The translations under genes were made by a program, and so were the position numbers. The notes beneath the pieces were generated by a model, which saw nothing but the letters and a program-made list of their open reading frames with translations, had not been told where the DNA came from and ran no database searches. A stretch of 37,576 nucleotides of DNA from Candidatus Micrarchaeota archaeon (GTDB lineage: Archaea > Micrarchaeota > Micrarchaeia > Micrarchaeales > CABMGC01): assembly GCA_027314465.1 (NCBI GenBank), contig DAHVAU010000004.1, forward strand, positions 1 through 37,576, read 5' to 3'. Below are positions 15,693 through 37,576 of the stretch, piece by piece (the first letter of the stretch is position 1; every line of letters begins with the position of its first letter).

Positions 15693-15710
15693 GTATGCCA
15701 TTCAAAGCAC

Positions 15711-16472: not shown

Positions 16473-16486
16473 TATACCACCATACT

Positions 16487-16876: not shown

Positions 16877-16880
16877 CTCA

Positions 16881-17186
16881 TCATTCTATTGTAAGCTCCA
16901 CTATCTTTCCGAAGGTGTTCTTTATCCTTTCCTCTTCAAACGCATCCATCACGTTTGAGACGGATACATCGTCTATGCCTATCCTTCGCAGTATGTTTAT
17001 GACATCGCTCTGATGAAGGCCGGTCCTAAGCAGCATGTCCGTGAACATGAGCACGTTGACGTGGCTGTGCATCTTGTCCAGCTGGCCCACTATCTGCTCT
17101 ATGTTCTTCTCCCCGACCTTGAAGCTGGCCAGTAGCTTCTTGAATTCCAGCTTGCTTATCCCCAGCGATCCTGCCAATTCTATCAC
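16881..17186 (-). CDS. small helical protein homologous to the C-terminal module of the upstream ATPase
   Basis: 101-aa ORF whose GTG start overlaps the ATPase stop (GTGA). FKKLLASFKV..IEQIVGQLDKMHSHVNVLMFTDMLLRTGLHQSDVINILRRIGIDDVSVSNVMDAF aligns with the ATPase residues FEKLLLTSKF..IIDAVFKQLDARTRLVDLKEFVKILISERMTKEAIVSLLRAIGISDNIISRAF. Confidence 0.65.
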   Translation of the reverse strand: MIELAGSLGISKLEFKKLLASFKVGEKNIEQIVGQLDKMHSHVNVLMFTDMLLRTGLHQSDVINILRRIGIDDVSVSNVMDAFEEERIKNTFGKIVELTIE

Positions 17187-18688: not shown

Positions 18689-18692
18689 ATGA

Positions 18693-19514
18693 TCACTTCT
18701 GTTGGTCAAACTCCGAAGACAGCTCGCCGATGCTAGGTACCCTGTAATTGAAGTTGTGCACCAGGTACATCTCCCTGCCCATTATGCGGGCTATGCTCAG
18801 GTCGAATATGTTGAATACCGTGGAGAGCTCGTTGAGCTGGTTTGTGAGCCTGTCCATCGCCTCTTTCTGGCTCACGCCTACCGCAGTACTCTCTATATAC
18901 ATTATGCTGTTGACCGGTCTTTCCCCTTCACCTATCCTGTCTATCCTTGCCTGTATCACATTTATCTGCCTCTGTATTGTCTCAAGGCCCATTGGATTGG
19001 GGTTGCTTCCCTGTGTCTCCTTAGAGTACTGGAACTCCAGAAGGCCGCGTTTGGCCTCAAGCTCCTCCCTGTAGTGCTGCACCTCCTCGGCAACGGCCAC
19101 TATGTTGAACTTGAACGGGAAGTGTATGTTCATTATGGCCTTCTCCCACTTGTCAGGCGCAGCTGCCAGGGCCATGTCCTCTTCCTGCACCTGCTCCTGC
19201 GCGAATATGTAGTTGTAGATGTTTGCTGTTAGGTATCCTGTCGCATAGTATATGCCGTTGGAGTACTTTATTATTGCATCCTGGCTCTTTGGTATTATGT
19301 AGCCCTTTGAAGGCACTATGACTATATTGAGCAGCTTTGTGAATGCGGGGAATATCAGGAAGTCTGCGAAGGCTATGAGCAGTATGAGGCCCAGGGAGAC
19401 GAACCCGAAGACAACTATTATTAGCCCGACTACGCCGTACTTGACACCGTTGACTATTACTAGCAGAACTACCAGCACTGAGAGGGCTATGTGTATTATC
19501 GTCTTCTCGTCCAT
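18693..19514 (-). CDS. membrane-anchored protein (N-terminal TM hairpin plus ~190-aa soluble domain), paralog of the 19519-20346 product
   Basis: 273-aa ORF with an ATG start. The TM region is IHIALSVLVVLLVIV...VVGLIIVVFGFVSLGLILLIAF. With the upstream gene it shares the blocks SNGIYYATGYL, FPFKFNIV and GVSQKEAMDRLTNQLNEL, and the ending RVPSIGEL. Confidence 0.75.
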   Translation of the reverse strand: MDEKTIIHIALSVLVVLLVIVNGVKYGVVGLIIVVFGFVSLGLILLIAFADFLIFPAFTKLLNIVIVPSKGYIIPKSQDAIIKYSNGIYYATGYLTANIYNYIFAQEQVQEEDMALAAAPDKWEKAIMNIHFPFKFNIVAVAEEVQHYREELEAKRGLLEFQYSKETQGSNPNPMGLETIQRQINVIQARIDRIGEGERPVNSIMYIESTAVGVSQKEAMDRLTNQLNELSTVFNIFDLSIARIMGREMYLVHNFNYRVPSIGELSSEFDQQK

Positions 19515-19518
19515 CCCA

Positions 19519-20346
19519 TCACATCATGTTCTGCGTCTGCTGGTTCTGCGAGTACCTCATGAGCTCGCTTATGGTCGTAGGCGGTATCATGTATTCAGGC
19601 TCCACCAGCACAAGCATGTCCGCCCCAGTTACCACTGATGCGCTCACCCCCACAGTTGCACTTATTCCTGCTGCAACCTCATCGGCCTTGAGCGATATCA
19701 TGTTCATCGCCTCTTCCTCTGTGCCTCCGAATACGGTGACTGCCGCATACACATCAAGGGCCTGCGAGTTTGCCTTTGAGACGCTGTCAAGCAGGTTGTG
19801 CCACATCGTCACCTCCCCCTTTATCCTGTCGAGCTGGGGCTTGCTGGCGTTCTTGTCAAGTTGTATGGCGTTGTACCTGGCCTCGGCCTCGTTTAGCCTG
19901 GAAGTCACCCTGGCTATGTAATCGTCTTTGTTTATGGAGTAGAGCTGCGAGGTCACCTTTATCGGGGTCTTGCTTATGCTTACCATCCTTGAGAACACAT
20001 TGGAGAAGTTGAACTTCTGTTCGTCATTCATCTCGGTGGACGAACTGTACACAGGCACCTTGATGAATGATGTCGCGTATATGAGGTTGTCCTTCCTTAC
20101 CAGTATCGCGTTGCCGTTCTGCGACATGTAGAAGGCATCGTCTGGATCTAGCACCACGCTGCCGCTCTTGGATCGCAGCACAGGCGCATACAGGTAGTAG
20201 TAGTACCTGGTCGCGAATGCCAGCACAGCGGCAATAAGCGCTATGATGGCTAAGAGTAGAGCCACCGGGCTCAGGCTGGCTGGAGGCAACCCAGTAAGCG
20301 TTGCAAAAACGAAACCAACCGCAGCGATGACAATGAAGATTACCAT
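19519..20346 (-). CDS. membrane-anchored protein (N-terminal TM hairpin plus ~200-aa soluble domain), paralog of the 18693-19514 product
   Basis: ATG 20346 (MVIFIVIAAVGF...); the ORF-track TTG is at 20367. There are two TM helices. The shared blocks are QNGNAILVRKDNLIYATSFI, TPIKVTSQL and GGTEEEAMNMISLKADEV, ending in MIPPTTISEL. Confidence 0.75.
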   Translation of the reverse strand: MVIFIVIAAVGFVFATLTGLPPASLSPVALLLAIIALIAAVLAFATRYYYYLYAPVLRSKSGSVVLDPDDAFYMSQNGNAILVRKDNLIYATSFIKVPVYSSSTEMNDEQKFNFSNVFSRMVSISKTPIKVTSQLYSINKDDYIARVTSRLNEAEARYNAIQLDKNASKPQLDRIKGEVTMWHNLLDSVSKANSQALDVYAAVTVFGGTEEEAMNMISLKADEVAAGISATVGVSASVVTGADMLVLVEPEYMIPPTTISELMRYSQNQQTQNMM

Positions 20347-20377
20347 TTCTTGATTGCTGCTGGGCAACTGACCACTG

Positions 20378-20435: not shown

Positions 20436-22871
20436 CTAGGAGCGCTTTCTGGAAAGCTTCTTTCTGAGCGTCTCTGCAGCTGTTGCGCTGACACCCACAT
20501 TTGCACTGGCCTGCAGGCTCCTTAGCGTGGTCTCTGAAGCGCTTGAGTTCGAAGCCACAGAGAGCTGCTCTGCAACATTGCCAGTTGTTGCGATGCTATC
20601 CAGAGTCTCTTCTGATGCGCTGGAATTGGATGCCACAGTGACTCTTTCCTCGCTGCTGCCGCCCCTTGCGATGGCATCCAGCGCAGGCTTTGCTGTGCTC
20701 GTGTCCCTTGCGATGGCCATGCGTTCCTTGAGCGTTCTGTCAGCAGTATTGGCTATCTCTGCTTCATCGCGCATGTCTGTCGCGCGGCCGGCAGGGGCCT
20801 TGCTTATGTCCCCCTCGCTCATGTCCTTGTAAGGCGATGCAGCCATGGTCTCCAGCACGTCCCTTGGGGTGCTTGGATTCGAAGCCGCTGCCAGCTTCTC
20901 CCCGGCAGCGCCAGTAGTTGCTATTGTCCTGAGCACATCGACAGGAGTGTGCGAGTTGCCTGCAAGGGCCGTGCGCAGGTCCGCGTTTGCGGCCCCGTGA
21001 TTGTCATGCAGGTCCTGCAGTGTGGACTGGCTTGTGAATGCATTTGACGCTGCTGTCACATGAATCCTGTTTAGCTCCCTCTGCTTGTCGGATAGGATCT
21101 TGGCCTGCTGTGCAGCTTCATCTGAGCGTTCCTTTGCCTCTTTCGCCAGGCGCGCTGCGTCTTCGTGGCGCGCTGCGCGCGCCGCAACTGCGCTTGCATT
21201 TGAAAGGCGCGTCGCCTCGTTGTTGAGGCTGGTAACTTCAGACTGCCTGTCGCTCAGGTTGTCCTCGTACTTTCTCATGAATGCATCTATGCGCTCAGGA
21301 TTGCTCAGGCGCTTGAGATGCTCTCTTCTTGCCCCGCTGAGCATGCTGGCAGCAGTCTCATTCGGGCTTCCTGCAGCAGCAAGCCTGTCCTCCTTAGCCT
21401 GCGATATGCCCCTAGTAAGGCTGCGGTTGCGCATTATAGAGCCAGCAGTTAAGCCGCCTGTTGCTGCGGCCACACCGGCCATGCCAGTAATGCCCCTGTA
21501 CGCCCTAGTATAAGGAGTCGATGTCGGCTTCGTGCCCGCTTCGGATATCTTCTCGCGTACCTTAGCTGGCAAGTCCCGTATCTTCATCGGGGCGAGCGCG
21601 CCTCCTGGAACCAGGACTGCAGGCGATGCCAGACCAGCAGCGCTCCTCGCTGCTGGCGCCCCGTAACCAGTAAAATCGTATCCGCCTTGAGGGCCTTTCA
21701 TGGCATGGTAGATGCCAAGCAGCGCGGCAGATGTTATGGAATGGTCGTAAGAGCCGGGTTTTGCTGCGGCATAATGTATCTTCTTTACCTCGTCAATCAC
21801 GGCCTTCTCCATGGCCTTGTGCTCCTTTCGTGTCATCTGGGACAGATCACCGGCATACTTTGCTGAGTGTACTGCTATTATATCGCGCGCGCTATCGTAC
21901 CTGCTGTCAGCAGCTATCTTGCTCCTCTCTATGGGTTTGCGGTATCCGACATCGACGGCCTTCTGGGATGCCCTGTAACCCAGGTATAGCGGAGGTACGC
22001 CCATCAGAGCCACGGTGCTGCCTACTCCCCTAATGTGTTGCGGAAGCCTCTTGTCGAGATTCCTAACGAAATGGCTGTCCTGCCTCTTTGCAGAGGCATT
22101 TGCCTGGAAGCGGGTATTCCTTAGCCTGTATGCATGGCCTGAGCGCAATACACCATACGACAATCCCAGGATAGGATTTACTGCTAATATCCCCAGCCCT
22201 AACGCGCCGCCCATAGCTACCTTCGTTTTTCTGGACCTTCCCTGCCACCTGCGCTTGAGCGCTGACGAGGTCTTAGACACCCCCGAAACAGCCTTACCCA
22301 CGGTCTTGCCGTACAGCGCAGAAGATCCTGCAAGAGTAGCATTTACTCCACTCGCTTTGGCTGCAGTCCAGCTGCCCATCTTCCTGAGCCTGTTCCTGGC
22401 GCCCGTTGGCTTGCCAGGGACCCCTGTGAAGACCTTTCTGAGGCGCCTTCCAGTACGCCGCCTGAACATTGTAGCACGGCCGCCGGTCGGCATTACAGCT
22501 GCCATAGGAGCCAGAATTCTTGCCGCTGCCCTCTTAGGCAGTGGCGGTCTCCCTCCTGCAGCCCCTATAAGCGTCTTTCCGGTGAACTTCGCGCTCTTGC
22601 TCCTGCCCTTTGCGGCGCGCAGCCTGCTGCCCACCATTAGCTCGCCAGCGTGGTGGCCCAATAGGGGCAGCACGAATGCATTCTTCCCTGCCAGCGAGGC
22701 CTTTCCTGCGGGATTGATGGCGCTGAACGTTGTTATGCCGAAGAAGTTGAACAGGCTGTATCCCCTGTTCAGGCCAGCGGCAGCGACTAGAAGTATGAGT
22801 ATGATTATTATTGGAATAAGGCCGTTTATGGCCCCCAGGGACAGCAATATAGCCATCAGAACCAATAACAT
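20436..22871 (-). CDS. 811-aa membrane protein: N-terminal TM segments, extremely basic acid-free region, central domain, coiled coil, C-terminal LRV/HEAT-like repeats
   Basis: ATG 22871.
- First TM: LLVLMAILLSLGAINGLIPIIIILILLVAAAGL.
- Residues ~81-220: about 35 Arg/Lys and no Asp/Glu by my count.
- Further hydrophobic segments near residues 217-242 and 283-297.
- Coiled coil near residues 535-605.
- Residues ~606-803: 5-7 repeats of roughly 24-26 aa, such as ERVTVASNSSASEETLDSIATTG and AEQLSVASNSSASETTLRSLQASA. Confidence 0.8.
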   Translation of the reverse strand: MLLVLMAILLSLGAINGLIPIIIILILLVAAAGLNRGYSLFNFFGITTFSAINPAGKASLAGKNAFVLPLLGHHAGELMVGSRLRAAKGRSKSAKFTGKTLIGAAGGRPPLPKRAAARILAPMAAVMPTGGRATMFRRRTGRRLRKVFTGVPGKPTGARNRLRKMGSWTAAKASGVNATLAGSSALYGKTVGKAVSGVSKTSSALKRRWQGRSRKTKVAMGGALGLGILAVNPILGLSYGVLRSGHAYRLRNTRFQANASAKRQDSHFVRNLDKRLPQHIRGVGSTVALMGVPPLYLGYRASQKAVDVGYRKPIERSKIAADSRYDSARDIIAVHSAKYAGDLSQMTRKEHKAMEKAVIDEVKKIHYAAAKPGSYDHSITSAALLGIYHAMKGPQGGYDFTGYGAPAARSAAGLASPAVLVPGGALAPMKIRDLPAKVREKISEAGTKPTSTPYTRAYRGITGMAGVAAATGGLTAGSIMRNRSLTRGISQAKEDRLAAAGSPNETAASMLSGARREHLKRLSNPERIDAFMRKYEDNLSDRQSEVTSLNNEATRLSNASAVAARAARHEDAARLAKEAKERSDEAAQQAKILSDKQRELNRIHVTAASNAFTSQSTLQDLHDNHGAANADLRTALAGNSHTPVDVLRTIATTGAAGEKLAAASNPSTPRDVLETMAASPYKDMSEGDISKAPAGRATDMRDEAEIANTADRTLKERMAIARDTSTAKPALDAIARGGSSEERVTVASNSSASEETLDSIATTGNVAEQLSVASNSSASETTLRSLQASANVGVSATAAETLRKKLSRKRS

Positions 22872-22899
22872 GCGATCAACATATTACAGGAGGCATTTT

Positions 22900-22908
22900 C
22901 ATATAAAT
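22900..22908 (-). promoter_or_regulatory. TATA/box-A candidate for the 811-aa gene
   Basis: The minus strand reads GGTATTTATATGAAAATG. The TATTTATAT element lies about 30-37 nt upstream of ATG 22871, in the 51-nt gap after the six-paralog block. Confidence 0.4.
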
Positions 22909-22922
22909 ACCTACCTAGGCGC

Positions 22923-24023
22923 CTAGACAAGTGTGCGCAGCCTTCCCGAGGTCTTTGCCATCCCCCCCAGTATCTCGGCTATCTGGGTCACCAGCGCATA
23001 TGTGAGAGCTATGATAAGCGCTGGGAAGAACAGTATGGAGAGCCAGAATGCCCCGAAAGTGCTCTGTAGCTGCCCTATGGTCGATACGAGAGGGGCGCTG
23101 GCTGACAGGGAATTGTCTATGAGGCCGCTTGGGGATGCGCCATATCTGTTGAGCGCAGTCTGCGATTGCGAGAGCTGCGTGTAGATGTTGGTCGATGTGT
23201 AGTAGTATGCTATCGAGAACAGGGTAGGCATTATAAAGTAGAATCCTATGGCCATGGCTATCATCATGCCGCCCAGGTTGCGCGTAGGTATCAGAGCCCT
23301 GAATATGATTCCAGGCACAAGGAATACAGGTATTGCGGCGTACATGAAGAATATTATCAGGTAGAACTGCGTGTACAGCGACAGCATCGCCTCGAACATG
23401 AACGCCACCACGACCCATGACGGCCAGAAGAACAGGTACTGGAAGGCGAGAGCCCACACCGGCGGTATGGTAGGGAAGTTGAATCCGCCAACTTCGCCCT
23501 CGAGCTTGAAGCTGGTGTAGCTGTAACCCAGGGTGCCAAGGTAGAAGACGTGGGATGCAGTGGTGTATGTTGTGTTCAGAGTGGTTGCTATGTAAGTAAG
23601 CGATGCATCAAACGGATTGATCGGGCCTGCAGTAACTGCCGGGAGTATGCCGAACATGACAGCGCTTATGAACACGAACAGTATCGCCATCATTGCCGTT
23701 GCTGTGGCCTCGTACAGCTCTCCTGTGCCAAACGTCCTGAGCCTGTCGTTTCTGAACGCCACTCCGAACATGAATAGGACAGCCGCTATTGAATAGGAGA
23801 ACATCACAGCGACCATCATCAGCGGGAAGTACTTGTGCCATTCGCTTATTATTGAGGGATTTATGTACTTGCAGTACCACGGAGCCACATTCTCTACTAT
23901 TCCTCCGGCAGCAGGATTTCCACAGTACTGGCTAAGTATGCCCTGCGCGTGCAATAGGCCGGTTATGCAGAGCACCGCTACAAACGCAATGGCCAGGGCG
24001 AATGTTATCCTCTTTGGCATCAT
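22923..24023 (-). CDS. polytopic membrane protein, paralog 6 of a six-member tandem family (VirB6/TrbL/CedA-like role hypothesised)
   Basis: 366-aa ORF whose ATGATG start overlaps the upstream stop by 4 nt. It has a signal-like N-terminus (ITFALAIAFVAVLCITGLLHAQG) and about 7 or more TM segments. The family signature is GIIFRALIPTRNLGGMMIAMAIGFYFIMP. Confidence 0.8.
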   Translation of the reverse strand: MMPKRITFALAIAFVAVLCITGLLHAQGILSQYCGNPAAGGIVENVAPWYCKYINPSIISEWHKYFPLMMVAVMFSYSIAAVLFMFGVAFRNDRLRTFGTGELYEATATAMMAILFVFISAVMFGILPAVTAGPINPFDASLTYIATTLNTTYTTASHVFYLGTLGYSYTSFKLEGEVGGFNFPTIPPVWALAFQYLFFWPSWVVVAFMFEAMLSLYTQFYLIIFFMYAAIPVFLVPGIIFRALIPTRNLGGMMIAMAIGFYFIMPTLFSIAYYYTSTNIYTQLSQSQTALNRYGASPSGLIDNSLSASAPLVSTIGQLQSTFGAFWLSILFFPALIIALTYALVTQIAEILGGMAKTSGRLRTLV

Positions 24024-25117
24024 AGTATCCTCGTTAATATCGAAAACAGGTCCATCCTCTCCCCTATGGACCTGGAGAAGTCGACTATGAAGGCGTCGAC
24101 CACCACCAGATTGAGGAGCGGTATGAATACTAACCCTGCTCCTATAAATCCAGCATACATGATCAGTGGAGCAAATATCTTGCTGAACACTGCATTAGTA
24201 TAATTAAGCGGATTGACTATATTCAATAGAGACTGCACGAGGAAGTTCCCAAGGGTGTCAAGCGGCACGGCTACCCCGCTGGTGGCGCCGCCTATGGCCG
24301 CATGCGCTATTGCAGAGTCAAGGAATCCGTACGTAAGGCCCACCATCAACGGATACACAACGCCTATGCCCAGGCCGAAGGCTATCATAGCCCCGCCGAA
24401 GCTTTTGGTGACCCCGAAAGACCTTGCTATAAGACCTATTATGATGAATGCGCTGAACAGGAGCATTGATGAGCTTATCAGGTACTGCTGCAGCAAGGAG
24501 GCGATGGAAAGCGCGTAGTATACCTGCATGTAAGGTATGATGTATTGGTGAACGAACACTATCGGGAGCAGCTGTATGGTGAAGCTGATGCCTATTCCGC
24601 CGTAGCCTAGATTTACCGGTATTGCCGGCGCTATGCCCCCTGCAAGCGAGAACCAGAACAGGGAGGTGCTGAACTGGGCAAGATCCGTATTGTATTGGTA
24701 CATGTCGCATGTTGCCACGCCGAAGATATCTGCTACGTTTGACGGCGATGGAGTTGCGCCTGCGTTGGCAGGATTGCATGCCTGCGGCAGCAATCCTATC
24801 GAATTCAGGGGCGTCACAGGATTGACGCATATGAGCATTGTGGAGAAGCTCACGAAGATTATCGCGAATACTATAGTGACCAGTCCGTCGTATATCTTGG
24901 CCCTTGCCCATACCTTCATGTCATTTCTTCCGAGCGCAGGGGAGAGCATGTAGAACAGCGCTGCAATGCCTATTATGACAGAGACGGCCATTAGCACTAT
25001 GGGGAACCATACATTGGGAGTGGCGGAGAAGAAGCTGACCACATTGTTGGTGTATCCCCCTCCAGCGAATGGGCACACTGCAAGTTGCAGCATCCATGGA
25101 ATTATAACTTCTAGCAT
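24020..25117 (-). CDS. polytopic membrane protein, paralog 5 of the tandem family
   Basis: 365-aa ORF with an ATG start 1 nt after the upstream stop. The family signature is GLIARSFGVTKSFGGAMIAFGLGIGVVYP. Cys-containing predicted external loops include QACNPANAG and ATCDMY. Confidence 0.8.
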   Translation of the reverse strand: MLEVIIPWMLQLAVCPFAGGGYTNNVVSFFSATPNVWFPIVLMAVSVIIGIAALFYMLSPALGRNDMKVWARAKIYDGLVTIVFAIIFVSFSTMLICVNPVTPLNSIGLLPQACNPANAGATPSPSNVADIFGVATCDMYQYNTDLAQFSTSLFWFSLAGGIAPAIPVNLGYGGIGISFTIQLLPIVFVHQYIIPYMQVYYALSIASLLQQYLISSSMLLFSAFIIIGLIARSFGVTKSFGGAMIAFGLGIGVVYPLMVGLTYGFLDSAIAHAAIGGATSGVAVPLDTLGNFLVQSLLNIVNPLNYTNAVFSKIFAPLIMYAGFIGAGLVFIPLLNLVVVDAFIVDFSRSIGERMDLFSILTRIL

Positions 25118-25118
25118 A

Positions 25119-26300
25119 TCACACCACCCTTCCGAGCATCCTGGCGCCCTGCAGCGAAGGCGCCCCTAGTATTGTTCCCAGCTTCTCTACCATCTCGTAT
25201 GATACTATTAGCGAGATTATTAATCCGATTAGGTCTATGCCTATGAACTGCAGTCCCTGGATAAATGCGAATACGTTCTCGTAGTATACCTCGCCGAAAT
25301 TGTAATCCATCAGGCCCAGTATCTCCTTGCCTGACGTGGTCAGGAAGCTCCCTGAATTGCACAGGCTTGAGAACGTAGTGTTGAACGTGCTGGAGTCGCA
25401 AAAGCCCTTGCCGCTAAGGCCGTGCCCGGTCACTCCGAGGAACGGGAACATCAATGCCGGGAATATCAGGTAAAACGATATGAACAGCGCTATAAGCGAT
25501 CCTCCGGCAGGCCGCGTCCATGGGAAGGAGCGCAGCACTATGCCAAGGTAGAGGAACAGTGGGAATAGGTAGTATATGGTGAACAGTATCACTATGATGA
25601 ACATGCCCATGAACATGCCCCCGAAGTAGATCGTCTGCTCGTCCCATAGCAGCTGTATTAGCAGCGCGATTCCCTGGAACGGATCGAACGCCACGCCGAA
25701 GTTGTTTGGCATTATGGAGATCCTGAATCCCCCTGTCGGAGGCGATGAGGTGGCGAATGCATTGGCTACCATAAGATTCACGTATATGCCAAACCAGTTC
25801 TCCAGACTGGACGTTATCACATTTGTGTTTATGTCATTGCACAGATTCACATACATGGTGTTTATGCTGCCTGTGCCTGACGAAGCCGATCCCACACCTG
25901 TTGAGGATGTCGCTATGTTGGAGAAGAAGGACAGCGATGCAGGGGCGAATGCCATGGCTGTGCCTATGACGGCTATTATGGCGAGATTGCCCCCTGCTTC
26001 TACCATCTCGGCCTTGCTGAAATTGATAAGCTGGTCCAGATGGAATGCTGTGCCTATTGCGTATGTGACGCCAACTATCGAGAGCATTGCTAGTATTATC
26101 AGCACTGCGATGGTAAGCATCGAGCTGCCGAGCGATGAGATGCCGGTTCCGGGGCTTGTTATTGCGGCAAGATTGCCCGCTGGGGACAGTGAGGCTGATG
26201 AAGAGAAGAAGTTGTTGCAGTTCACTACTGATATGGCGTTTGACGCGCCGATGAGCACGGCGAAAGCCAGGAGCGTTAGTGCAAATTGCCTGTATCCCAT
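25119..26300 (-). CDS. polytopic membrane protein, paralog 4 of the tandem family
   Basis: 393-aa ORF with an ATG start and a signal-like N-terminus (FALTLLAFAVLIGASNAIS). The family signature is GIVLRSFPWTRPAGGSLIALFISFYLIFP. Confidence 0.8.
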   Translation of the reverse strand: MGYRQFALTLLAFAVLIGASNAISVVNCNNFFSSSASLSPAGNLAAITSPGTGISSLGSSMLTIAVLIILAMLSIVGVTYAIGTAFHLDQLINFSKAEMVEAGGNLAIIAVIGTAMAFAPASLSFFSNIATSSTGVGSASSGTGSINTMYVNLCNDINTNVITSSLENWFGIYVNLMVANAFATSSPPTGGFRISIMPNNFGVAFDPFQGIALLIQLLWDEQTIYFGGMFMGMFIIVILFTIYYLFPLFLYLGIVLRSFPWTRPAGGSLIALFISFYLIFPALMFPFLGVTGHGLSGKGFCDSSTFNTTFSSLCNSGSFLTTSGKEILGLMDYNFGEVYYENVFAFIQGLQFIGIDLIGLIISLIVSYEMVEKLGTILGAPSLQGARMLGRVV

Positions 26301-26310
26301 CTAATCCAAC

Positions 26311-27948
26311 TCATATGAACCTGCTCAGCCCTATGATGGTGGTCTCTCCCCCCATCAGCGAAGAGATCCCCACCATTGCCGATATCATCATCAATACGTT
26401 TATTATAGGAATTATGAACGCCGACACCGCTATAATTCCATACATATTTGCCAGGGCACTAAGCGCCGCGGCTATGTTGTACGGGCCTATCCTGGCCACG
26501 CATGCGCCATTGTTTGCAGTAAGCAGGCCCAGAGGCGACGACAGCGGAGATATTCCGGTGAAGAACGACAGTATGAAAGTTACCGGCAGTGATATCTCCT
26601 GCACTAGAGTCTGCGCAAGCGCCTCTGACTCAAAAGGCCATATCGTAGTGGCGCCAGCCTGGATGTTACATGAGTACAGATTGATAACGTCGCCTGCGTA
26701 TGGATACACGTAGAAGTTTATGTTGCGCTTCACGTAGCATGTAGCCGCAGTGCTGAATGGATTCCCCCCGCTGATGAAAGGCTGCTCGCCCTGCGATACG
26801 CTTGAGCACGCATTTAGAGTGGTGGCAGTTCCTTTTGCAGGGGTCAGACCCTTAAGTATGTAGCTGGTCTTGAGCGAATCGGCGCTAGTGTAGCAGTACA
26901 GCACGTTGTTACCAGCGCTGTTCGCAAGCTGCCCGAAGCCGCACAGCGATACTGCAGGTATGGAGCTTGCCCCTATGAACGAGTTGGGGTTGAGGTTGCT
27001 GAGCGATGAATATTCGAAGAGGAACACCGTAGGGTATATCACTACAGCGACCACTGTCGCTGCAATCAGTAGTCCCCCTATTCTCCTCGTGAAGGGTATG
27101 GTGCGCAGCACTATTCCTCCTGCAAGCAGGTACGGCCATCCCATAAGCACTATCAGGATGAGCACCATCTGTATGACGAACATATACAGGGCTATTGTGC
27201 CCTCAGTGGTTATGGCAGGCATTATCGCCCTCTGCAGCACGTAGCCGCCGTAGGGATTATATGAGAGCTTCAGTGTGGGCACAACGTCAGGAACCGGGAG
27301 GTCGCACTCCGCAGGTATGCACACAACTATGAAAGGCCGCAGGTTCCTGAGAAAGAACAGCAGGCTGTCGAAGTTGTACAGCGAGTTCAGCTCCATTGCC
27401 GACTGATTGCTCATGTTTGCGAACACAACGTACGTAGAGGCGAGTCCGTAGTCAATCTGCCTTGTGACTGGAGTGACTCCTGCATTGCTGTCTATCAGGT
27501 ACTTGCATACGGCAGTGGTAGGCCCTGGCAGGTTCTGGGCGTTGTCCTGGTATACGCTATTGAAAGTGCTTATCTGCGAGTTCGGAAGTATGTTGTTGCA
27601 TATATTGTTTATCTGTGATGTGCCCCCGCTTCCAAGTATGCTGGAGAAGCTTATGCTGGAGCTTGTGCCTATGAGAAAGAAGAACCATACTAGCAGCACT
27701 ACGATGAGTATGCTTGCGCCGGCGTGCTGCAGCTCCGATATGGCGCTGGCCTTCACCCTGTTATTGTTTAGGAGCCACCCTATCATATAGTATATCGAGG
27801 CCAACAGCACGGCCAGTGTGGAGGCTATGATTATGACAGGTATCCAGTTGTTGAATACATTATAGTTCGTGGCTATGCTCGACTGCGCGCCTGCGGCTGA
27901 TGAGAGGACCAACGCAGCTGCAATTGCGAATGCTATCGTAAGTCTCAT
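26311..27948 (-). CDS. polytopic membrane protein, paralog 3 (largest, with an expanded Cys-rich external region)
   Basis: 545-aa ORF whose ATG overlaps the upstream stop (ATGA). It has a signal-like N-terminus (LTIAFAIAAALVLSSAAGAQS). The family signature is GIVLRTIPFTRRIGGLLIAATVVAVVIYP. There are many Cys residues in predicted loops. Confidence 0.8.
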   Translation of the reverse strand: MRLTIAFAIAAALVLSSAAGAQSSIATNYNVFNNWIPVIIIASTLAVLLASIYYMIGWLLNNNRVKASAISELQHAGASILIVVLLVWFFFLIGTSSSISFSSILGSGGTSQINNICNNILPNSQISTFNSVYQDNAQNLPGPTTAVCKYLIDSNAGVTPVTRQIDYGLASTYVVFANMSNQSAMELNSLYNFDSLLFFLRNLRPFIVVCIPAECDLPVPDVVPTLKLSYNPYGGYVLQRAIMPAITTEGTIALYMFVIQMVLILIVLMGWPYLLAGGIVLRTIPFTRRIGGLLIAATVVAVVIYPTVFLFEYSSLSNLNPNSFIGASSIPAVSLCGFGQLANSAGNNVLYCYTSADSLKTSYILKGLTPAKGTATTLNACSSVSQGEQPFISGGNPFSTAATCYVKRNINFYVYPYAGDVINLYSCNIQAGATTIWPFESEALAQTLVQEISLPVTFILSFFTGISPLSSPLGLLTANNGACVARIGPYNIAAALSALANMYGIIAVSAFIIPIINVLMMISAMVGISSLMGGETTIIGLSRFI

Positions 27949-29171
27949 ACGTTACCCCAGAATGGCCCCACGGCCATCATCCTGTTTACCGAATTCAGTC
28001 CCTTGGTAAGCCCTTGCGCAAAGGCCAGCACTATTGCAAGGTCAATGCCTATCATAACTATGCCCTCGAAAAGGTACTCCGCAGTCTTTATTCCAAAGTC
28101 TATGGTTACCCCTGGCACATTGAACAAAGTACTGAACATCAGGGTTATTCCTTGCGAAAGCCCTCCTTCTGAAGAGAACGCCCCTGAGAGGAATGACGTG
28201 GTCAGCGGTATGCCGCTAAGTAGGCCGCTCCCGGTGTTGAAGCTCTGCGGCTGCGAGTTGAAGAAGTTGCTTGCCGGAGAGGCCCCAAGCTGGTAGGGGA
28301 ACGTGTACTGGTTGTATGGGTTGCACACCTGCCCTGCAACAGTGCACGGAGTGTTTATCCACGTTACAACGTAGGTATTGAACAGTATGGCAAGAGGCAG
28401 TATGAAGTAGAATCCTATGGCAAGGGCTAGGAATGTGTCTGACGACTCTCTGAGCTTGGGCCCGGCGAAAGGTATTGAGCGCATTGCTATGGCTACTGGG
28501 ACTACAATAGTCAGCGCAGTAGTCTGTATTAATGAGAGCAGCAGGTACACAACGAATATCACTCCGAAAGACACGATTATTAAGGGCGTGAAGGCCGCCA
28601 CCAGAGCGCCGCTGAATCCGTAGTATATGGTGAACAGTTCGGTACCAAGCTCCACGTGCAGGAAAGCAGAGAGATATGTATTCACTATCTCATCTACAGC
28701 GGAGCCGAGGTTTCCTGCTATTGTTATGAGTACCGATTCTGAGTATATCTGCTGGAATAGCGACAGCCCTTTTGAGAACATCAGATTGCCAAGGTAGAGC
28801 TGCGCAAACTGCATCGGGTCCTGGTATGTGGCATGCAGCACAGGAGCCGCAGATGCAGTAAGAGATGAGCCTACCTGACATGTTGTCGCTGCTATTGCGA
28901 TGAGTATTATGACTATGATTATGGCTATGACGCCCTGGAAGGCCTCGTACTTCGCCGCGCCCTTCATCTTCTCGCGCATGGAAACAGGAAATATGTTGGC
29001 GAACGAGTATACCGCTGCGGATATCATGAACGATGCAAGTACGATAAGCAGGTTTATCTGGATCCAGGAATTTGTGTTGAGCGTGCCGCTAGCCCCGGTG
29101 GTGCCACCGAAAGTGCAGGCCTGCAGGTAGGGATTCTGCGCAGCAGCAAGTACCATTGGTAGGATGTTCAT
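27945..29171 (-). CDS. polytopic membrane protein, paralog 2 of the tandem family
   Basis: 408-aa ORF whose ATG shares 1 nt with the upstream stop (TGATG). It carries a divergent form of the signature, AIAMRSIPFAGPKLRESSDTFLALAIGFYFILP. Confidence 0.8.
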   Translation of the reverse strand: MNILPMVLAAAQNPYLQACTFGGTTGASGTLNTNSWIQINLLIVLASFMISAAVYSFANIFPVSMREKMKGAAKYEAFQGVIAIIIVIILIAIAATTCQVGSSLTASAAPVLHATYQDPMQFAQLYLGNLMFSKGLSLFQQIYSESVLITIAGNLGSAVDEIVNTYLSAFLHVELGTELFTIYYGFSGALVAAFTPLIIVSFGVIFVVYLLLSLIQTTALTIVVPVAIAMRSIPFAGPKLRESSDTFLALAIGFYFILPLAILFNTYVVTWINTPCTVAGQVCNPYNQYTFPYQLGASPASNFFNSQPQSFNTGSGLLSGIPLTTSFLSGAFSSEGGLSQGITLMFSTLFNVPGVTIDFGIKTAEYLFEGIVMIGIDLAIVLAFAQGLTKGLNSVNRMMAVGPFWGNV

Positions 29172-30445
29172 CAGCTCGCCAACCTCAGTTTGCCTCCCAG
29201 AGAGAGCTTTATGCTTCCCCCAAATACCCTAGCTATGTTGTCAACTATCGGATAGATTATGATTATGTCGATAGCAAGCAGTAGGAGCTGCACGATCAGA
29301 TATAGCCCGTACTGCAGTATCTGGTTCATGTAGTGGTAGATGGCCTTGGTGCTGAATACTGCAGAAGATGACCCTATGGAATCCGCGACATTGCCTATTG
29401 TGCCTATTGCAGAGTTTATAAGGGCACATCCGGTTCCAAGCACTGTAGTCACAACTGTGCCAAATACCCCTCCACCTATGGTAGGGCATGTGAGCGGACC
29501 TGATACAACTGCAGAGGGCTGCTGCAGCGGAAGGGCGCTGTCAAGAGCCTGCGTGACGGGATAATTGAACAGCACAAGCACTGCAGGGAACACCACGGCC
29601 ATTGCAACACCTATGGCAAGCAGCGTGCCGCCTATTCCCCTTACGAACGGAAGGGCGCGGAACACCAGGCCTATTGGTATGAAGAACGCCAAACCTATGT
29701 AAGCGAGTGCAGGAAGCAGCGTTATGACGCCTATCTCCATGGACGTGTATGGAAACATTATGAAGTTTGAGAGGTCGTTGATTATTGAACCGAAGAATGC
29801 GATGTGGAAGTTTCCTGTCTGCAGGGCCCAATTGCCGAATGGGAGGAACAGGACGCCGAAGTTTATCCCGATTGCAATGGTTGTGAGAAGATCCGTAGGG
29901 GATGGGACATAGAAGCTGACCTGGAGCGTTGACCAGAACCCTGTGCCAGAGGCCATCTGCCCCAAAAGGCCCCATATGTTCACAACGTTTGCATTTACGC
30001 TGCATAGATACCCCTCTGCGCCGTTTATAAGGTAACCCAGGTTTGCTACGCCAGGAGCTCCAGCCCCAACCGTCTGCGGACTTGGAGATATTGCATTGGC
30101 CAGGTTGCCGATGAATATTATGATCGCATAGATGCTAATTATTATCAGCGCCGACTTGCCTATCTCCCAGTACTCCCCCTGCAGCCAGTTCCTGATGCCC
30201 AGATGCGGGAAGAGCCTGCTTATCATGTACCCTATTGCGACTACGTCAAAAGATATAGTAAGGGCCAGGAGCGCCATGGCAACGGCATTGAAGTAGTTGA
30301 AAGACACTGGAGCTATGGTAGGACTGGCATTGCACTCGGCAGGAACAGGTATTGTTGGAGTGGGAGGTATGCCTGTAGCAGCATATGACATACTAATAAG
30401 AAGGCACAGTAGGACACTGACCGATGCTACCGCTCGCAGCCGCAT
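29171..30445 (-). CDS. polytopic membrane protein, paralog 1 of the tandem family
   Basis: 424-aa ORF with an ATG start and a signal-like N-terminus (AVASVSVLLCLLISMSYAATG). The family signature is GLVFRALPFVRGIGGTLLAIGVAMAVVFP. Confidence 0.8.
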   Translation of the reverse strand: MRLRAVASVSVLLCLLISMSYAATGIPPTPTIPVPAECNASPTIAPVSFNYFNAVAMALLALTISFDVVAIGYMISRLFPHLGIRNWLQGEYWEIGKSALIIISIYAIIIFIGNLANAISPSPQTVGAGAPGVANLGYLINGAEGYLCSVNANVVNIWGLLGQMASGTGFWSTLQVSFYVPSPTDLLTTIAIGINFGVLFLPFGNWALQTGNFHIAFFGSIINDLSNFIMFPYTSMEIGVITLLPALAYIGLAFFIPIGLVFRALPFVRGIGGTLLAIGVAMAVVFPAVLVLFNYPVTQALDSALPLQQPSAVVSGPLTCPTIGGGVFGTVVTTVLGTGCALINSAIGTIGNVADSIGSSSAVFSTKAIYHYMNQILQYGLYLIVQLLLLAIDIIIIYPIVDNIARVFGGSIKLSLGGKLRLAS

Positions 30446-30561: not shown

Positions 30562-31299
30562 TCAGTGCCTAAGCAACCTGAACCTGTCCATGTACGCCTG
30601 AGCCTGGAAGATGACGAAATACGGAACTACGAGCAGGGAGTTTATGATCAGCGCTATGTACCTTGACCAGAGGGTGCCGAACAAGCCTATGCACGCCACA
30701 TCCACAAGAGACACTATGACTGTAGCAAGCACAAGCCATATGATGAAGTACTGCGGCTCGTGGAGCACAAGCCTCAGGCTGTCAACAACCGCCCGTGACG
30801 CCTTCTTGTTGTCTACAACTATTGCGCTGGGAGCATAGAATATCACAAGGAAGAGCACAAAACCAACGACGGCTGTTAGCAGCGTCGATATCCCAAGTGC
30901 ATACCCAACCATGCTAGCTACCATGAGTATCAGAGTGTATACAAGCAGGACGGCGAACACCTTCCATATGTACTTCTCAAGATCCTCGAATACCCTCTTG
31001 CCAACTGACGAGTGAGTCCTCTTTGACTTGACCAGCAGGCTTATCAGCACAAAGGCGAAGCTTAGGAACAGAAGGGAGAATATAGTCGATGCTGTGATCA
31101 CTGCAAGGCTCACCAGGTCTATGTTCCCGTTCGCGAATATGCTTGCGCTCCTAAGGAATATGGCTCCGGCGCTTATGTAGGTTGGAAGCGGGGCGAGCAA
31201 TGGTATCGCGAAGGCTATCACGAATGGTATGGAGAATATTATGGCTAGGCCTATCCTCTCCCTGTAGACATTCCAGGATTCCCTTATCACACCTGCCAA
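30562..31299 (-). CDS. six-TM integral membrane protein, unknown function
   Basis: 245-aa ORF with no ATG near its 5' end (TTG 31299 or GTG 31290). It has six evenly spaced hydrophobic helices and no recognisable catalytic motif. Confidence 0.65.
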   Translation of the reverse strand: MAGVIRESWNVYRERIGLAIIFSIPFVIAFAIPLLAPLPTYISAGAIFLRSASIFANGNIDLVSLAVITASTIFSLLFLSFAFVLISLLVKSKRTHSSVGKRVFEDLEKYIWKVFAVLLVYTLILMVASMVGYALGISTLLTAVVGFVLFLVIFYAPSAIVVDNKKASRAVVDSLRLVLHEPQYFIIWLVLATVIVSLVDVACIGLFGTLWSRYIALIINSLLVVPYFVIFQAQAYMDRFRLLRH

Positions 31300-31342: not shown

Positions 31343-33208
31343 CTATCTTGCAGGAGGAGCAGTGACAGTAAATGAAGGCCCCACATAGTAATGGCCGCTG
31401 TTGTAGATCACGGTGTTGAGATAGGCAGTACCGGCAGTTATGTTGGATGGTATGGTTGCATTCAGGGCATAAATGCCGTTTGACAGGTGCATCAGGTTGG
31501 GATTCGTGGCGCATGGATAGGCTGCGCAGTTCAGGCTGCCTTTGAATAATCGCTGTGCAGAAAGGCCGTAGAAGAGCCCTCCCTGACCCTGGTACTCTAT
31601 CATGAATGCGAGGTATGCACTGGTACCTGGACCGCCATACAGCACGTCTGCACGGTACAGCACTGTGCCATTATTCTGAAGCTCTGCGGTCTGGTTGTAC
31701 AGATGTATGCTGAACCCGCTTTCATAAGAAGCATGGGAGAGAGCTACAACAGCAACTATGGCCGCTATTACAACGAGCGTAGCTACGTAGGCAGCGGCCT
31801 TGCCTGCGGCCGTATTAACGTACGATCTGAACCGCCCTATTGGCCTGTGTCCAGAGTCAATGCGGCATACCAGCGTAAAGAGGAGGGCCAGCAGTATGTA
31901 GTACACCAAGAGCAGATGGTTAATGAACAGCAGAGGTATCATTGCAAGTAATGGTATTGCCCTCCTGTCGTTGGCATAGAGCGATACGATCACCATCAGC
32001 GCCGTAGACAGGGCGATAAGTATGGGATACGAATGCATGCCTATTGGATACTGCGAGGCTATTAGGTAGCCTATGGAGGACGATGGCTGTGGCAGTATGT
32101 TGCCAACAGTAAGTAACACTGATGATATGTAGCTGTATGGTGCGCTAATGATGAAATACCCATTTATCAGCATGAAGATGGCCCCTGCCCCAACAATCTC
32201 GCGTATGCCGCTTCTCCAGCCCTTGTTGTTTATGGTATAGACTATGAACAGCAGCATTATTGGCCAGAGCAGCTCCTGCAGCGATACTGCAAGTCCAATT
32301 ATAAGCCACGAGTACTTCTTGCTAGCTGCAGTGTAGAGAAGCAGCACCAAGGCAAGCATCAGAAATGTCTGCATTGATGCAATGAACATTGAGAATGCAC
32401 CGAACAGCACGTAAGCTGCGAAATTAGGTCTGAAGGGCTCGTCTTTTTTCATCACCAGAGCGAGTGCACCTATAAAGATCAGGAAGAATACAACCGCCTG
32501 GGTATGCATGTACAACTGGGCTATCGCCTGGAAGCCATACCCGCTGAACGCAAGATAGAACGGCACTGACACGAGGAAGTATAGGGCAGGATAATCAACG
32601 GCGCCTATCACAGTGTTGTCCTGGGTGAATGTTATCCTCCCGGTAGTGACATTTGATGTGAACAGAGTCTGGCTTATGGAAGTGGTGTATGGATTTATGC
32701 CCTGCAGCATGTGCTGCACTGCGTAGTATCCTATTACTGTCTCGTCATCAGCAGCGTAAATCACGTAGTGGAGATAGAATACCACCACTATGGCGATGAT
32801 GGCTATTGCAAGCGCTGCCTTAATCCTCCTGTCCTTTATGAACAGCGCGGCGCTGAGCGTCAGGGCCAGTACCATGAAAATGCATGCATAAGCAAACGCA
32901 TCTTCAAGCCATGATAGCCAATATGCAGTCAACTGACCCGTTGATAGGTAAAGAAATGAGGATACTGCAAATAGTACCAGTGATACTAGGAAAAGTACGT
33001 TGAACAGCCGCTTTCCAGCGCGGTCCGTTGCATGCGCAGCGTTCAATACTGCCAGAGCCACCACTACAGCGGCAAACGCAGCGTCGACCAGAGCCCCTGA
33101 CCAGAGATATTTCACTGGCCCGGCTATGGATGCAATAATAAATAAAACGAGGGCGATGAGGAGCCTGGCAGTCCTGTCAGGAACCTGCCGGCCCCTTCGC
33201 TCTCGCAT
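31343..33208 (-). CDS. large polytopic membrane protein with C-terminal external domain; GT-C-fold (PimE/DUF2029-like) glycosyltransferase candidate
   Basis: 621-aa ORF with an ATG start and about 13 TM segments. The loop AADDETVIGYYAVQHMLQGINPYT....AVDYPALYFL resembles the acidic-loop / G-x-N-P-Y / Y-P-P arrangement of DUF2029/GT87-type GT-C enzymes. The C-terminal ~130 aa are soluble and carry sequons (NQT, NGT, NAT, NIT). Confidence 0.7.
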   Translation of the reverse strand: MRERRGRQVPDRTARLLIALVLFIIASIAGPVKYLWSGALVDAAFAAVVVALAVLNAAHATDRAGKRLFNVLFLVSLVLFAVSSFLYLSTGQLTAYWLSWLEDAFAYACIFMVLALTLSAALFIKDRRIKAALAIAIIAIVVVFYLHYVIYAADDETVIGYYAVQHMLQGINPYTTSISQTLFTSNVTTGRITFTQDNTVIGAVDYPALYFLVSVPFYLAFSGYGFQAIAQLYMHTQAVVFFLIFIGALALVMKKDEPFRPNFAAYVLFGAFSMFIASMQTFLMLALVLLLYTAASKKYSWLIIGLAVSLQELLWPIMLLFIVYTINNKGWRSGIREIVGAGAIFMLINGYFIISAPYSYISSVLLTVGNILPQPSSSIGYLIASQYPIGMHSYPILIALSTALMVIVSLYANDRRAIPLLAMIPLLFINHLLLVYYILLALLFTLVCRIDSGHRPIGRFRSYVNTAAGKAAAYVATLVVIAAIVAVVALSHASYESGFSIHLYNQTAELQNNGTVLYRADVLYGGPGTSAYLAFMIEYQGQGGLFYGLSAQRLFKGSLNCAAYPCATNPNLMHLSNGIYALNATIPSNITAGTAYLNTVIYNSGHYYVGPSFTVTAPPAR

Positions 33209-33235: not shown

Positions 33236-33598
33236 TTAGGCGCAGTTTGTGGTAGTGCTAAGTCCACCAGAGGTTGCTATGAGGCTTATGACTCCAGGGG
33301 CGATTATCACTATTATTAGGCCCACTATTCCTCCGACTATCATTCCAAGAGACCAGCCCTGTAGGTTGCCTCTGAGGTTTCCAGCCGCAGGCAGCATGTG
33401 CGCTATTGCGTACATTACGCCTCCTAGTATGAACAATACTAGTGAGATTATTCCCACTACTGTCCTTACAGTAGTTATTATATTACATAGCGAGCTGCTC
33501 ACTGCCGTTGAGGCAGCAGCTGCATTCACGAGCGAAACAACGCTCATTACGCTTACCATTGCCATTACGACAAGGTACAGTCTATTCAGCAATGCCAT
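33236..33598 (-). CDS. VirB2/TrbC/CedA1-like conjugative-type pilin candidate
   Basis: 120-aa ORF, first gene of the cluster.
- Long signal peptide MALLNRLYLVVMAMVSVMSVVSLVNAAAA, followed by S.
- Hydrophobic helix 1: LCNIITTVRTVVGIISLVLFILGGVMYAIAHML.
- Short basic loop: PAAGNLRGNLQG.
- Hydrophobic helix 2: WSLGMIVGGIVGLIIVIIAPGVISLIA.
- Short tail: TSGGLSTTTNCA. Confidence 0.7.
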   Translation of the reverse strand: MALLNRLYLVVMAMVSVMSVVSLVNAAAASTAVSSSLCNIITTVRTVVGIISLVLFILGGVMYAIAHMLPAAGNLRGNLQGWSLGMIVGGIVGLIIVIIAPGVISLIATSGGLSTTTNCA

Positions 33599-35248: not shown

Positions 35249-35312
35249 TTCGCTTTGGACTTAGGGCATATGTGGCTGTGCACCAGGCTGCGCGCGTGAG
35301 GATTGGTTCTTG

Positions 35313-36824: not shown

Positions 36825-36832
36825 ACAAAAGG

Positions 36833-37438: not shown

Positions 37439-37488
37439 AAGCTAAGAGACGAGAGGCTCGATGAAGTGGCCTCCAAACTGGGATTGTG

Positions 37489-37576
37489 ATGCTTGGTAAA
37501 AAGAAGTTGGTGAACAGACAGATAGTGGGATTCACTAAGCCCAGGAAGATACTGTTCTTCAGGATAAAACCAAAGC
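37489..37576 (+). CDS. 5' end of a CDS running off the window (MLGKKKLVNRQIVGFTKPRKILFFRIKPK...)
   Basis: The ATG at 37489 stays open to the window end. Its position after a FlaI/PilB-like ATPase would suit a FlaJ/PilC/TadC-type platform protein, but only 29 basic residues are visible. Confidence 0.3.
   Translation, partial: MLGKKKLVNRQIVGFTKPRKILFFRIKPK

Follow-up and report, generated by a model that had tools for sequence, protein, structure and literature searches.

A 37,576-nucleotide stretch of a Candidatus Micrarchaeota chromosome (contig DAHVAU010000004.1 of assembly GCA_027314465.1, referred to here as the window) carries, on its minus strand at positions 22923-30445, six consecutive and co-directional open reading frames (ORFs) that encode polytopic membrane proteins, named p1 to p6 in gene order. 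Although strongly diverged, these proteins are genuine paralogs, ancient and probably non-redundant, of a membrane protein family for which we found no earlier description. With moderate confidence, we propose that they serve as subunits, none of them redundant, in the membrane platform (or stalk base) of a chromosomal apparatus that is derived from type IV secretion systems (T4SSs), resembles the archaeal Ced and Ted systems and is conserved across Micrarchaeota. A preliminary description made from the sequence alone had placed six homologous genes in a type IV secretion-like context; that context is borne out, and is strengthened by the presence of a TrbC/VirB2-type pilin gene upstream of the array and by the likeness of that pilin to the first transmembrane (TM) hairpin of the six proteins.

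Homology, age and distribution of the six paralogs

ORF calling reproduced the coordinates and lengths originally given for the six consecutive genes (Table 1). Their junctions, in order from p1 to p6, are a 1-nt overlap, a 4-nt overlap, a 10-nt gap, a 1-nt gap and a 4-nt overlap. Because the genes overlap or nearly abut, the packing is compatible with an operon, possibly with translational coupling. The array lies within a co-directional block of 20.5 kb (13099-33598).

Within the window the six proteins share only 21-28% pairwise identity, in collinear alignments, and BLASTP and phmmer scores among them are marginal. Relatives were identified by a database search with the six-sequence alignment, which returned 86 proteins of the p1 and p2 types only; all are unannotated, and those with a named source are from Candidatus Micrarchaeota or Micrarchaeaceae. 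Orthologs of p3 to p6 were taken from fetched loci. For the locus survey, one genome per GTDB species was scanned, giving 69 distinct loci (numbered with the prefix L), almost all of them labelled Micrarchaeota. ORFs were called in these loci and each was assigned to its best-matching window paralog.

Profiles of the resulting orthogroups (57-64 sequences each) were compared with HHalign. All 15 pairs of p1-p6 profiles match, with probabilities of 96.0-99.1% and E-values from 4.6e-9 to 7.6e-19, over approximately 200-310 collinear columns in every case except p2-p4 (55 columns). The p1 profile matches those of p2-p6 at 98.3-99.1%, and the p2 profile, from the most diverged copy, matches the other five at 96.0-98.3%. 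As a negative control, four orthogroups of membrane proteins that are encoded in these loci but unrelated to the six reach no more than 3.1% (E≥0.014). Since all profile pairs match and the unrelated membrane proteins do not, the similarity among the six, which had initially been recognised by eye, is homology and not shared hydrophobic composition.

The order p1-p2-p3-p4-p5-p6 is exactly kept in 53 of the 69 loci, each with six copies. The remaining loci lack a complete array, mostly with a contig end or with a gene that is apparently split or missing. Six consecutive genes are also found in the most diverged locus, L073. The six-fold duplication is older than the divergence of the sampled Micrarchaeota, with all copies retained since. 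Two complete six-gene arrays (L025 and L043) come from bins labelled Marsarchaeota and Saccharimonadales; these are probably mis-binned Micrarchaeota contigs rather than real occurrences outside the phylum.

Conserved motif, topology and predicted structure

The six proteins had been described as sharing an R-x-x-P-x-x-R-x-x-GG signature. Across 150 family members, both of its basic residues are retained (R263 in 143 of 150, R/K269 in 149 of 150) and its glycines are found in most members (125 and 124 of 150), being lost in the p2 group. The middle proline, P266, does not stand as part of the signature: it is present in only 72 of 150 members and is not conserved in two paralog groups. With A277 (133/150) and the invariant P287 (150/150) taken into account, a better consensus is R-x5-[RK]-x2-G-G-x3-A-x9-P. 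The acidic site previously noted after the first TM segment is confirmed, E91 being present in 124 of 150 members; position 94 is occupied by E, D or Q.

By hydropathy, each protein has a signal peptide (a short leader in p2 and p5) followed by five hydrophobic segments. After the leader or cleavable signal peptide comes hairpin 1 (TM1-basic loop-TM2), which a large external domain bearing cysteines separates from hairpin 2 (TM3 and TM4 joined by the R-x5-[RK]-x2-GG loop); TM5 lies beyond a further external domain and leads into a basic tail. In all six orthogroups, the short TM1-TM2 and TM3-TM4 loops and the C-terminal tail are rich in K and R and free of cysteine, while all of the cysteines and N-x-S/T sequons fall in the two long loops and the N-terminal segment, which are acidic. 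The earlier placement of cysteines in predicted external loops therefore holds, with the N-terminal segment added. The external loops are the variable parts of the proteins (52-184 residues), and in p3 loops 2 and 4 carry an average of 3.8 and 5.1 cysteines. As the distributions of charge, cysteines and sequons agree in all six orthogroups, they give a predicted topology with five TM segments, in which the N-terminus is outside and the C-terminus inside, TM2 is followed by a large loop, and the R-x5-[RK]-x2-GG turn is on the cytoplasmic side.

AlphaFold2 (AF2) models of p1 (54-sequence ortholog alignment; pLDDT 76, pTM 0.69) and p6 (72 sequences; pLDDT 87.2, pTM 0.77) are both bundles of six helices of approximately 35-50 residues each; in p6, the six helices following the signal peptide are 34-53 residues long. 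Because helices of this length are far longer than a bilayer crossing, much of the modelled bundle must stand outside the membrane.

A TrbC/VirB2-type pilin and its likeness to hairpin 1

The first gene of the block encodes a small protein with a signal peptide and two hydrophobic helices linked by a basic loop. The window protein matches PF04956 over profile positions 8-97 of 98 with E 1.9e-4 and 22 bits, which is below the gathering score of 27.9. Among 47 orthologs, PF04956 is matched by 22 (best E-value 4e-8) and PF18895 (T4SS_pilin) by 16 (best 9.6e-7). Two cysteines are conserved, C38, which lies just after the signal peptide and is nearly invariant, and C119 at the extreme C-terminus; a disulfide between them would close the protein end to end, much as head-to-tail cyclisation does in TrbC/VirB2 pilins. 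The pilin gene is present in two tandem copies in L037, L040, L045 and L062.

The pilin profile matches the profile of the six-paralog family (HHalign 82.6%, E 9.6e-6), with pilin residues 42-114, essentially the whole mature pilin, aligned to p1 residues 52-119, that is, to TM1-loop-TM2. The match is retained with hairpin 1 alone (78.8%, E 1.7e-5); four unrelated membrane orthogroups score 0.6% or less against the pilin. Compared with single orthogroups, the pilin gives a clearly positive match to p2 only (84%, E 7.6e-6), most of the others aligning in the same register at non-significant scores. The idea that hairpin 2 is a further pilin-like unit that arose by internal duplication was considered and ruled out, the pilin matching hairpin 2 at 0.5% and the C-terminal TM region at 0.1%. 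A comparable relationship has been described for CedA, whose N-terminus is homologous to the CedA1 pilin, and, more weakly, for VirB6 and VirB2 (Beltran et al., PMC9905601). The N-terminal region of the Micrarchaeota proteins thus resembles its cognate VirB2-like pilin as that of CedA and TedA does, at moderate strength.

The ATPase and conservation of the cluster

The ATPase of the block has Pfam matches to DUF87 (3.8e-15), TraG P-loop (3.3e-13) and AAA_10 (3.1e-12). Its best NCBIfam matches are CedD (7.6e-22), the F-type VirB4 protein TraC (2e-19) and CedB (2.8e-15), with further matches to HerA and the CD1110 VirB4-like family, and its relatives in the PDB are HerA and VirB4 (4ag5). Residues 61-376 align to positions 423-737 of 800 in TraC/VirB4, i.e. 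to the C-terminal ATPase part only, and the protein has no VirB4-type N-terminal domain. An exhaustive search gave 2,193 relatives. Ten of those from outside Micrarchaeota were looked up; all have the same domains, and the two with names are archaeal (Bathyarchaeota and Thermoproteota).

The same core order, consisting of the pilin, a protein of approximately 630 aa, one of approximately 245 aa, the six paralogs, two proteins of approximately 275 aa and an ATPase of approximately 501 aa, is found in L001, L003, L004, L075 and L076. The genes for the six are therefore clustered with those for a VirB2-type pilin and a VirB4-type ATPase, which is the position of VirB6. The preliminary description had placed them next to VirB4; this needs correction, as the direct neighbour of the array in the window is the gene for an 811-aa LRV-repeat protein (20436-22871), and the VirB4/HerA-type ATPase gene lies 4.2 kb farther. 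The LRV-repeat gene is not a constant part of the cluster: it is inserted between array and ATPase module in 18 loci only and is absent from L003, L004, L075 and L076.

Searches for membership of known families

No relevant family was found for p1-p6 in Pfam or in NCBIfam, for which the existence of a CedA model is unverified. Scanning 108 family members against Pfam at E≤1 gave no recurrent family and only scattered single matches, including matches to PKD domains in one member. Foldseek searches of the PDB with the p1 and p6 models gave no match at E≤1e-3, the top matches being generic long-helix bundles (TTYH2, designed repeat proteins and aspartase). The possibility of a new family, raised at the outset, is in keeping with the lack of matches in Pfam, NCBIfam and PDB sequences, where no match to a transporter or enzyme family was obtained either.

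HHalign comparison of the cluster orthogroups with single Trw proteins of R388 is too insensitive, with only 13% even for the ATPase against TrwK. The pilin does rank TrwL first, and the ATPase ranks highest against TrwK, but it gives 67% with the unrelated TrwD/VirB11, through the Walker region only.

Proposed function and alternative explanations

We suggest that the six proteins work like a VirB6/CedA-type component, with membership of VirB6 unproven, because the pilin-like hairpin 1 and the VirB6-like topology fit published descriptions of such components. Their fixed order and universal co-occurrence in the loci fit the predicted hetero-oligomeric platform. In the proposed mechanism, the six proteins would come together in a single hetero-oligomer, which may be a ring of pseudo-six-fold symmetry that matches a hexameric ATPase. 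This platform would recruit pilin subunits out of the membrane or extract them, nucleate a pilus or channel and be its base and conduit, and the conserved R-x5-R-x2-GG loops and basic tails may couple it to the ATPase module, perhaps via the 282/273-aa protein pair. Speculatively, the role of the apparatus is exchange with the host, through Ced-like DNA import or the uptake of other macromolecules, and not plasmid transfer; this is suggested by the chromosomal location, the lack of transfer genes and of other signs of a mobile element, and the retention of the cluster in the genomes, smaller than 1 Mb, of obligate symbionts.

Several results weigh against this proposal. PF04610 (TrbL/VirB6) is matched by none of the six window proteins and none of the 108 family members at E≤1. 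Against an alignment of R388 TrwI and 34 relatives (35 sequences), HHalign gives 0.1% for the family alignment (A4), 0.2% for the p1 ortholog alignment (A2) and at most 0.7% for any orthogroup; all of these relatives are at least 50% identical to TrwI, so the reference is shallow and its sensitivity limited. Searches of PDB sequences with the p1 and family profiles returned nothing at E≤10. Chains of the R388 stalk complex that we take as TrwI/VirB6, which is present in both entries, do recur in the Foldseek results, in the midst of the generic long-helix bundles and at non-significant values: 8rtd_L ranks fourth for p1 (E 0.25, probability 0.41, the highest in the list, TM-scores 0.18/0.26), and 7o3v_J ranks 24th for p6 (E 0.89, TM-scores 0.23/0.30, the highest among the 50 matches listed). 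This recurring structural signal from predicted models is suggestive at best, and the VirB6/TrbL homology that the preliminary description had considered is not demonstrated. In addition, the pilin-hairpin similarity is moderate, exceeding 2% in p2 alone among the single orthogroups, and the ATPase scores 38-78 bits against NCBIfam cut-offs of 325-1177, so that it is VirB4-like rather than a classified VirB4. The 245-aa protein with six TM segments could be the true VirB6/CedA counterpart instead of the six. The hetero-oligomer, its contact with the ATPase and its substrate are predictions.

The likeness of hairpin 1 to the VirB2-like pilin could alternatively mean that the six are membrane-anchored pilin derivatives, such as minor pilins, tip or adhesin subunits or host-recognition modules with variable Cys-rich external domains, rather than a platform or channel. 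The variable length of the external loops, the restriction of cysteines and sequons to them and the PKD-domain matches in one of 108 members would agree with this, yet the three extra TM segments, the strictly conserved cytoplasmic loop (R263, R269 and GG) and the basic tail would retain the proteins in the membrane. Their most conserved parts, moreover, face the cytoplasm in the predicted topology, which suits a machine component better than a fibre subunit, and exactly six genes in fixed order are more in line with a complex of set stoichiometry than with a repertoire of adhesins that diversify; we regard a pilin-derivative role as unlikely. It also seems improbable to us that the array is an unrelated membrane system, for example a transporter or a complex for the biogenesis of the envelope, S-layer or glycans, whose only tie to the pilin and ATPase genes is a common operon-like block. 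In favour of this view, no similarity to a T4SS component is detected beyond the moderate pilin-hairpin signal, and the block does encode two further polytopic proteins (621 aa with approximately 12 TM segments, and 245 aa), with a gene for a DUF2079 membrane protein inserted nearby in L003 and L075. It is opposed by the absence of any transporter or enzyme family match in Pfam, NCBIfam and the PDB, by the tight co-directional packing with overlapping stops and starts, by the linkage of pilin, six paralogs and ATPase, which is invariant across different chromosomal neighbourhoods, and by the fact that the cognate pilin resembles hairpin 1 specifically and neither hairpin 2 nor TM5.

A VirB2-like pilin and a VirB4-like ATPase are also hallmark genes of conjugative elements, and a tRNA-Pro gene lies at 313-385, so that the cluster might be taken for the mating apparatus of an integrated conjugative element. 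We consider this very improbable. The window is archaeal chromosome, with the housekeeping genes CDC48, aIF2-gamma and topoisomerase VI-B (TopoVI-B) at 2.8-11.8 kb and an even GC content along its length, and no integrase, relaxase or VirD4-type coupling protein was found among the window ORFs scanned. A tblastn search with p6 against 72,556 plasmids gave no match. The 69 loci, which include contigs of 0.65-0.85 Mb, are labelled almost entirely Micrarchaeota and lie in housekeeping contexts, with orthologs that diverge in step, and the core cluster recurs amid different chromosomal surroundings on contigs of up to 0.85 Mb. Because the synteny recurs in varied surroundings, with no integrase, relaxase or VirD4 and no plasmid match, the cluster is a host-encoded chromosomal system, like Ced and Ted.

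Comparison with known secretion systems

In R388, VirB6 forms a homopentamer that is the base and conduit of the pilus or channel, a role that CedA and TedA have in archaeal DNA import. The six paralogs resemble VirB6/TrbL (PF04610; TrwI of R388, PDB 7O3V and 8RTD) in being polytopic and encoded between genes for a VirB2-type pilin and a VirB4-type ATPase, in having six to seven very long helices predicted to project from the membrane and in their pilin-like N-terminal part; of all T4SS chains, TrwI alone comes up repeatedly among the top Foldseek matches, at the non-significant scores given above. VirB6 has been described as having approximately five TM segments, with its N-terminus and a large loop in the periplasm and its C-terminus in the cytoplasm (PMC6120205), and hydropathy, charge, cysteines and sequons predict the same arrangement for the six paralogs, including the large external loop after TM2. 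They differ from VirB6, which is the product of one gene, in being six distinct proteins, all of which have external domains of a disulfide type as well as a signal peptide or short leader, in their conserved cytoplasmic R-x5-R-x2-GG loop, which has no known counterpart, and in lacking sequence or profile similarity to PF04610 and TrwI.

The closest parallels are the Ced system of Sulfolobales (CedA, with pilin CedA1 and ATPase CedB) and the Ted system of Thermoproteales (TedA, with TedC and TedB), which are archaeal, chromosomal and domesticated T4SS derivatives. As in the Micrarchaeota cluster, their parts are a VirB2-like pilin, a VirB4-like ATPase and a polytopic protein that is homologous to the pilin in its N-terminal region (PMC9905601), with no relaxase or VirD4. 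Among archaeal NCBIfam families, the Micrarchaeota ATPase scores best against CedD and CedB, far below the cut-offs. Ced and Ted have one CedA or TedA component each (PMC9905601) in contrast to six, CedA and TedA having been compared by description only. The Micrarchaeota cluster further adds the 621-aa and 245-aa polytopic proteins and the 282/273-aa pair, and its host is a DPANN symbiont.

Tandem multiplication of a polytopic T4SS membrane component is also known from the rvh T4SS of Rickettsiales, which likewise are obligately host-associated with reduced genomes, and the rvh VirB6 paralogs are reported to be expressed and to interact with one another (PMC7648143; Bao et al. 2009). The rvh paralogs are recognisable as VirB6/TrbL, often have huge C-terminal extensions and operate in a bacterial diderm envelope with VirB7-B10, whereas the Micrarchaeota copies are compact (approximately 350-620 aa), escape recognition by sequence and number six throughout the phylum. 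Patescibacteria (CPR), which are ultra-small episymbionts, have a widely conserved chromosomal T4SS-like system with VirB4, VirB3, VirB6 and VirB2-like components, and VirB6 and other components are essential for epibiotic growth in one strain (PMC12102498). That system is bacterial and related to monoderm conjugation systems, its VirB6 is recognisable by standard profiles, and no six-fold arrays are reported for it in the same paper. We treat the parallel between Patescibacteria and DPANN as an analogy of lifestyle rather than shown homology.

Other genes of the block and the window

The features of the block are listed in Table 1. Neither the 621-aa protein nor the 245-aa protein has a consistent Pfam match; HHalign finds the former unrelated to the six paralogs and the latter without similarity to the six, TrwI or the pilin. 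In L003 (7591-9150) and L075 (1098-2657), a DUF2079 polytopic protein gene lies on the opposite strand between the genes of approximately 640 and 245 aa. The LRV-repeat protein is very basic, of low complexity and rich in Ala, Gly and Arg, with the LRV repeats at its C-terminal end; a 303-aa ORF on the strand opposite to its gene (22015-22926) is probably spurious.

The orthogroups of the 282- and 273-aa proteins are homologous by HHalign (97.6%, E 3e-12), each having a soluble domain of approximately 220 aa, and the pair has no Pfam or PDB match. Candidate identities as VirB3, VirB8 or the VirB4 N-terminal domain gained no support from HHalign against R388 proteins, from Pfam or from the PDB. 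As the pair lies directly upstream of an ATPase without an N-terminal domain, it could be a split equivalent of VirB3 and the VirB4 N-terminal domain.

The accessory genes that follow the ATPase have weak Pfam matches only; L075 has genes of the same sizes after its ATPase gene, and L076 does not. The last of them encodes a bitopic surface protein with no family match, and a gene of similar size (781 aa) ends the cluster in L075.

Beyond the block, the left end of the window holds a tRNA-Pro(TGG) gene (313-385, minus strand), with neither an integrase nor a repeat seen next to it, and a gene for a DUF2666 protein (1431-2327, minus strand). At 11918-13075 on the plus strand, a 385-aa protein with no Pfam match has a repeated P-[KA]-H-L-[RK] motif in its N-terminal half, followed by a TM segment. 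Divergent from the block, at 34076-37576 on the plus strand, is a type IV filament locus comprising a 390-aa coiled-coil protein and a FlaI/T2SSE-type ATPase (NCBIfam FlaI 5e-73, below the cut-off). This locus extends in L001 with two T2SSF genes, and its adjacency to the T4SS-like cluster is not kept in L003, L004 and L076.

Table 1. Features of the co-directional block in the window, with positions in the window, strand and main characteristics.
Feature	Position	Strand	Characteristics
TrbC/VirB2-type pilin candidate	33236-33598	-	120 aa; first gene of block; identified by Pfam and architecture
621-aa polytopic protein	31343-33208	-	approximately 12 TM segments and external C-terminal domain; present in 42 loci
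245-aa 6-TM protein	30562-31299	-	directly upstream of p1; present in 57 loci
Paralog p1	29171-30445	-	424 aa; ORF call, HHalign, AF2 model
Paralog p2	27945-29171	-	408 aa; most diverged copy; GG absent; hairpin 1 most pilin-like
Paralog p3	26311-27948	-	545 aa; largest copy; external loops expanded and Cys-rich
Paralog p4	25119-26300	-	393 aa; HHalign 99.1% to p1, 98.9% to p3
Paralog p5	24020-25117	-	365 aa
Paralog p6	22923-24023	-	366 aa; compact; source of best structural model
LRV-repeat protein	20436-22871	-	811 aa; Pfam LRV 1.3e-8
282-aa protein	19519-20367	-	N-terminal hydrophobic hairpin and soluble, probably cytoplasmic domain
273-aa protein	18693-19514	-	paralog of 282-aa protein
VirB4/CedB/HerA-type P-loop ATPase	17183-18709	-	508 aa; ATPase domain only
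Accessory tail of block	13099-17186	-	101 aa; 129 aa (zinc-ribbon-like and TM); 253 aa (coiled coil); 815 aa
815-aa protein	13099-15546	-	N-terminal anchor, N-x-S/T-rich external part, second TM, approximately 220-aa cytoplasmic domain

Implications for Micrarchaeota and DPANN archaea

In the literature, we found no description of a T4SS-like, VirB2 or VirB4 cluster for Micrarchaeota or DPANN; coverage was incomplete, and a prior description is possible. The archaeal section of a December 2025 review of T4SSs is limited to Sulfolobales and Thermococcus plasmids. What is new here is probably the undescribed protein family in the VirB6 position with its six fixed paralogs, while the apparatus as a whole is probably of a known kind, a Ced/Ted-like domesticated T4SS derivative. 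The cluster defines at least four protein families that currently lack annotation.

As obligate symbionts with tiny genomes, DPANN archaea take material from their hosts by means of molecules that are, to our knowledge, essentially unknown. Against this background, the pilin, the ATPase and the six-fold platform protein are concrete candidate genes for the symbiont-host interface. A bolder version, which we find rather doubtful but worth stating, is that Micrarchaeota and perhaps other DPANN archaea possess a lineage-specific nanomachine derived from a T4SS, in which a hetero-hexamer of VirB6-position proteins would sit on a hexameric VirB4/HerA-type ATPase and serve exchange with the host from the symbiont side; a pilus that takes up host DNA or other macromolecules is a candidate alternative form of it. 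In Micrarchaeon ARM-1, cryo-electron tomography has revealed an unassigned 21-nm barrel-like structure in the envelope where host nanotubes dock or enter (PMC11329633), and the idea that this barrel is a product of the cluster is a lead only.

A block of approximately 20 kb would be a sizeable fraction of genomes such as those represented by the related contigs of 0.65-0.85 Mb, and there is a parallel in the T4SS that is essential for the epibiotic growth of Patescibacteria. If the proposed function is true, domesticated archaeal T4SSs of the Ced/Ted type would extend beyond Thermoproteota, and the array would provide a natural case in which a VirB6-position component that is usually homo-oligomeric has diversified into six specialised subunits, which may inform how pilins are recruited and how the ATPase is coupled.

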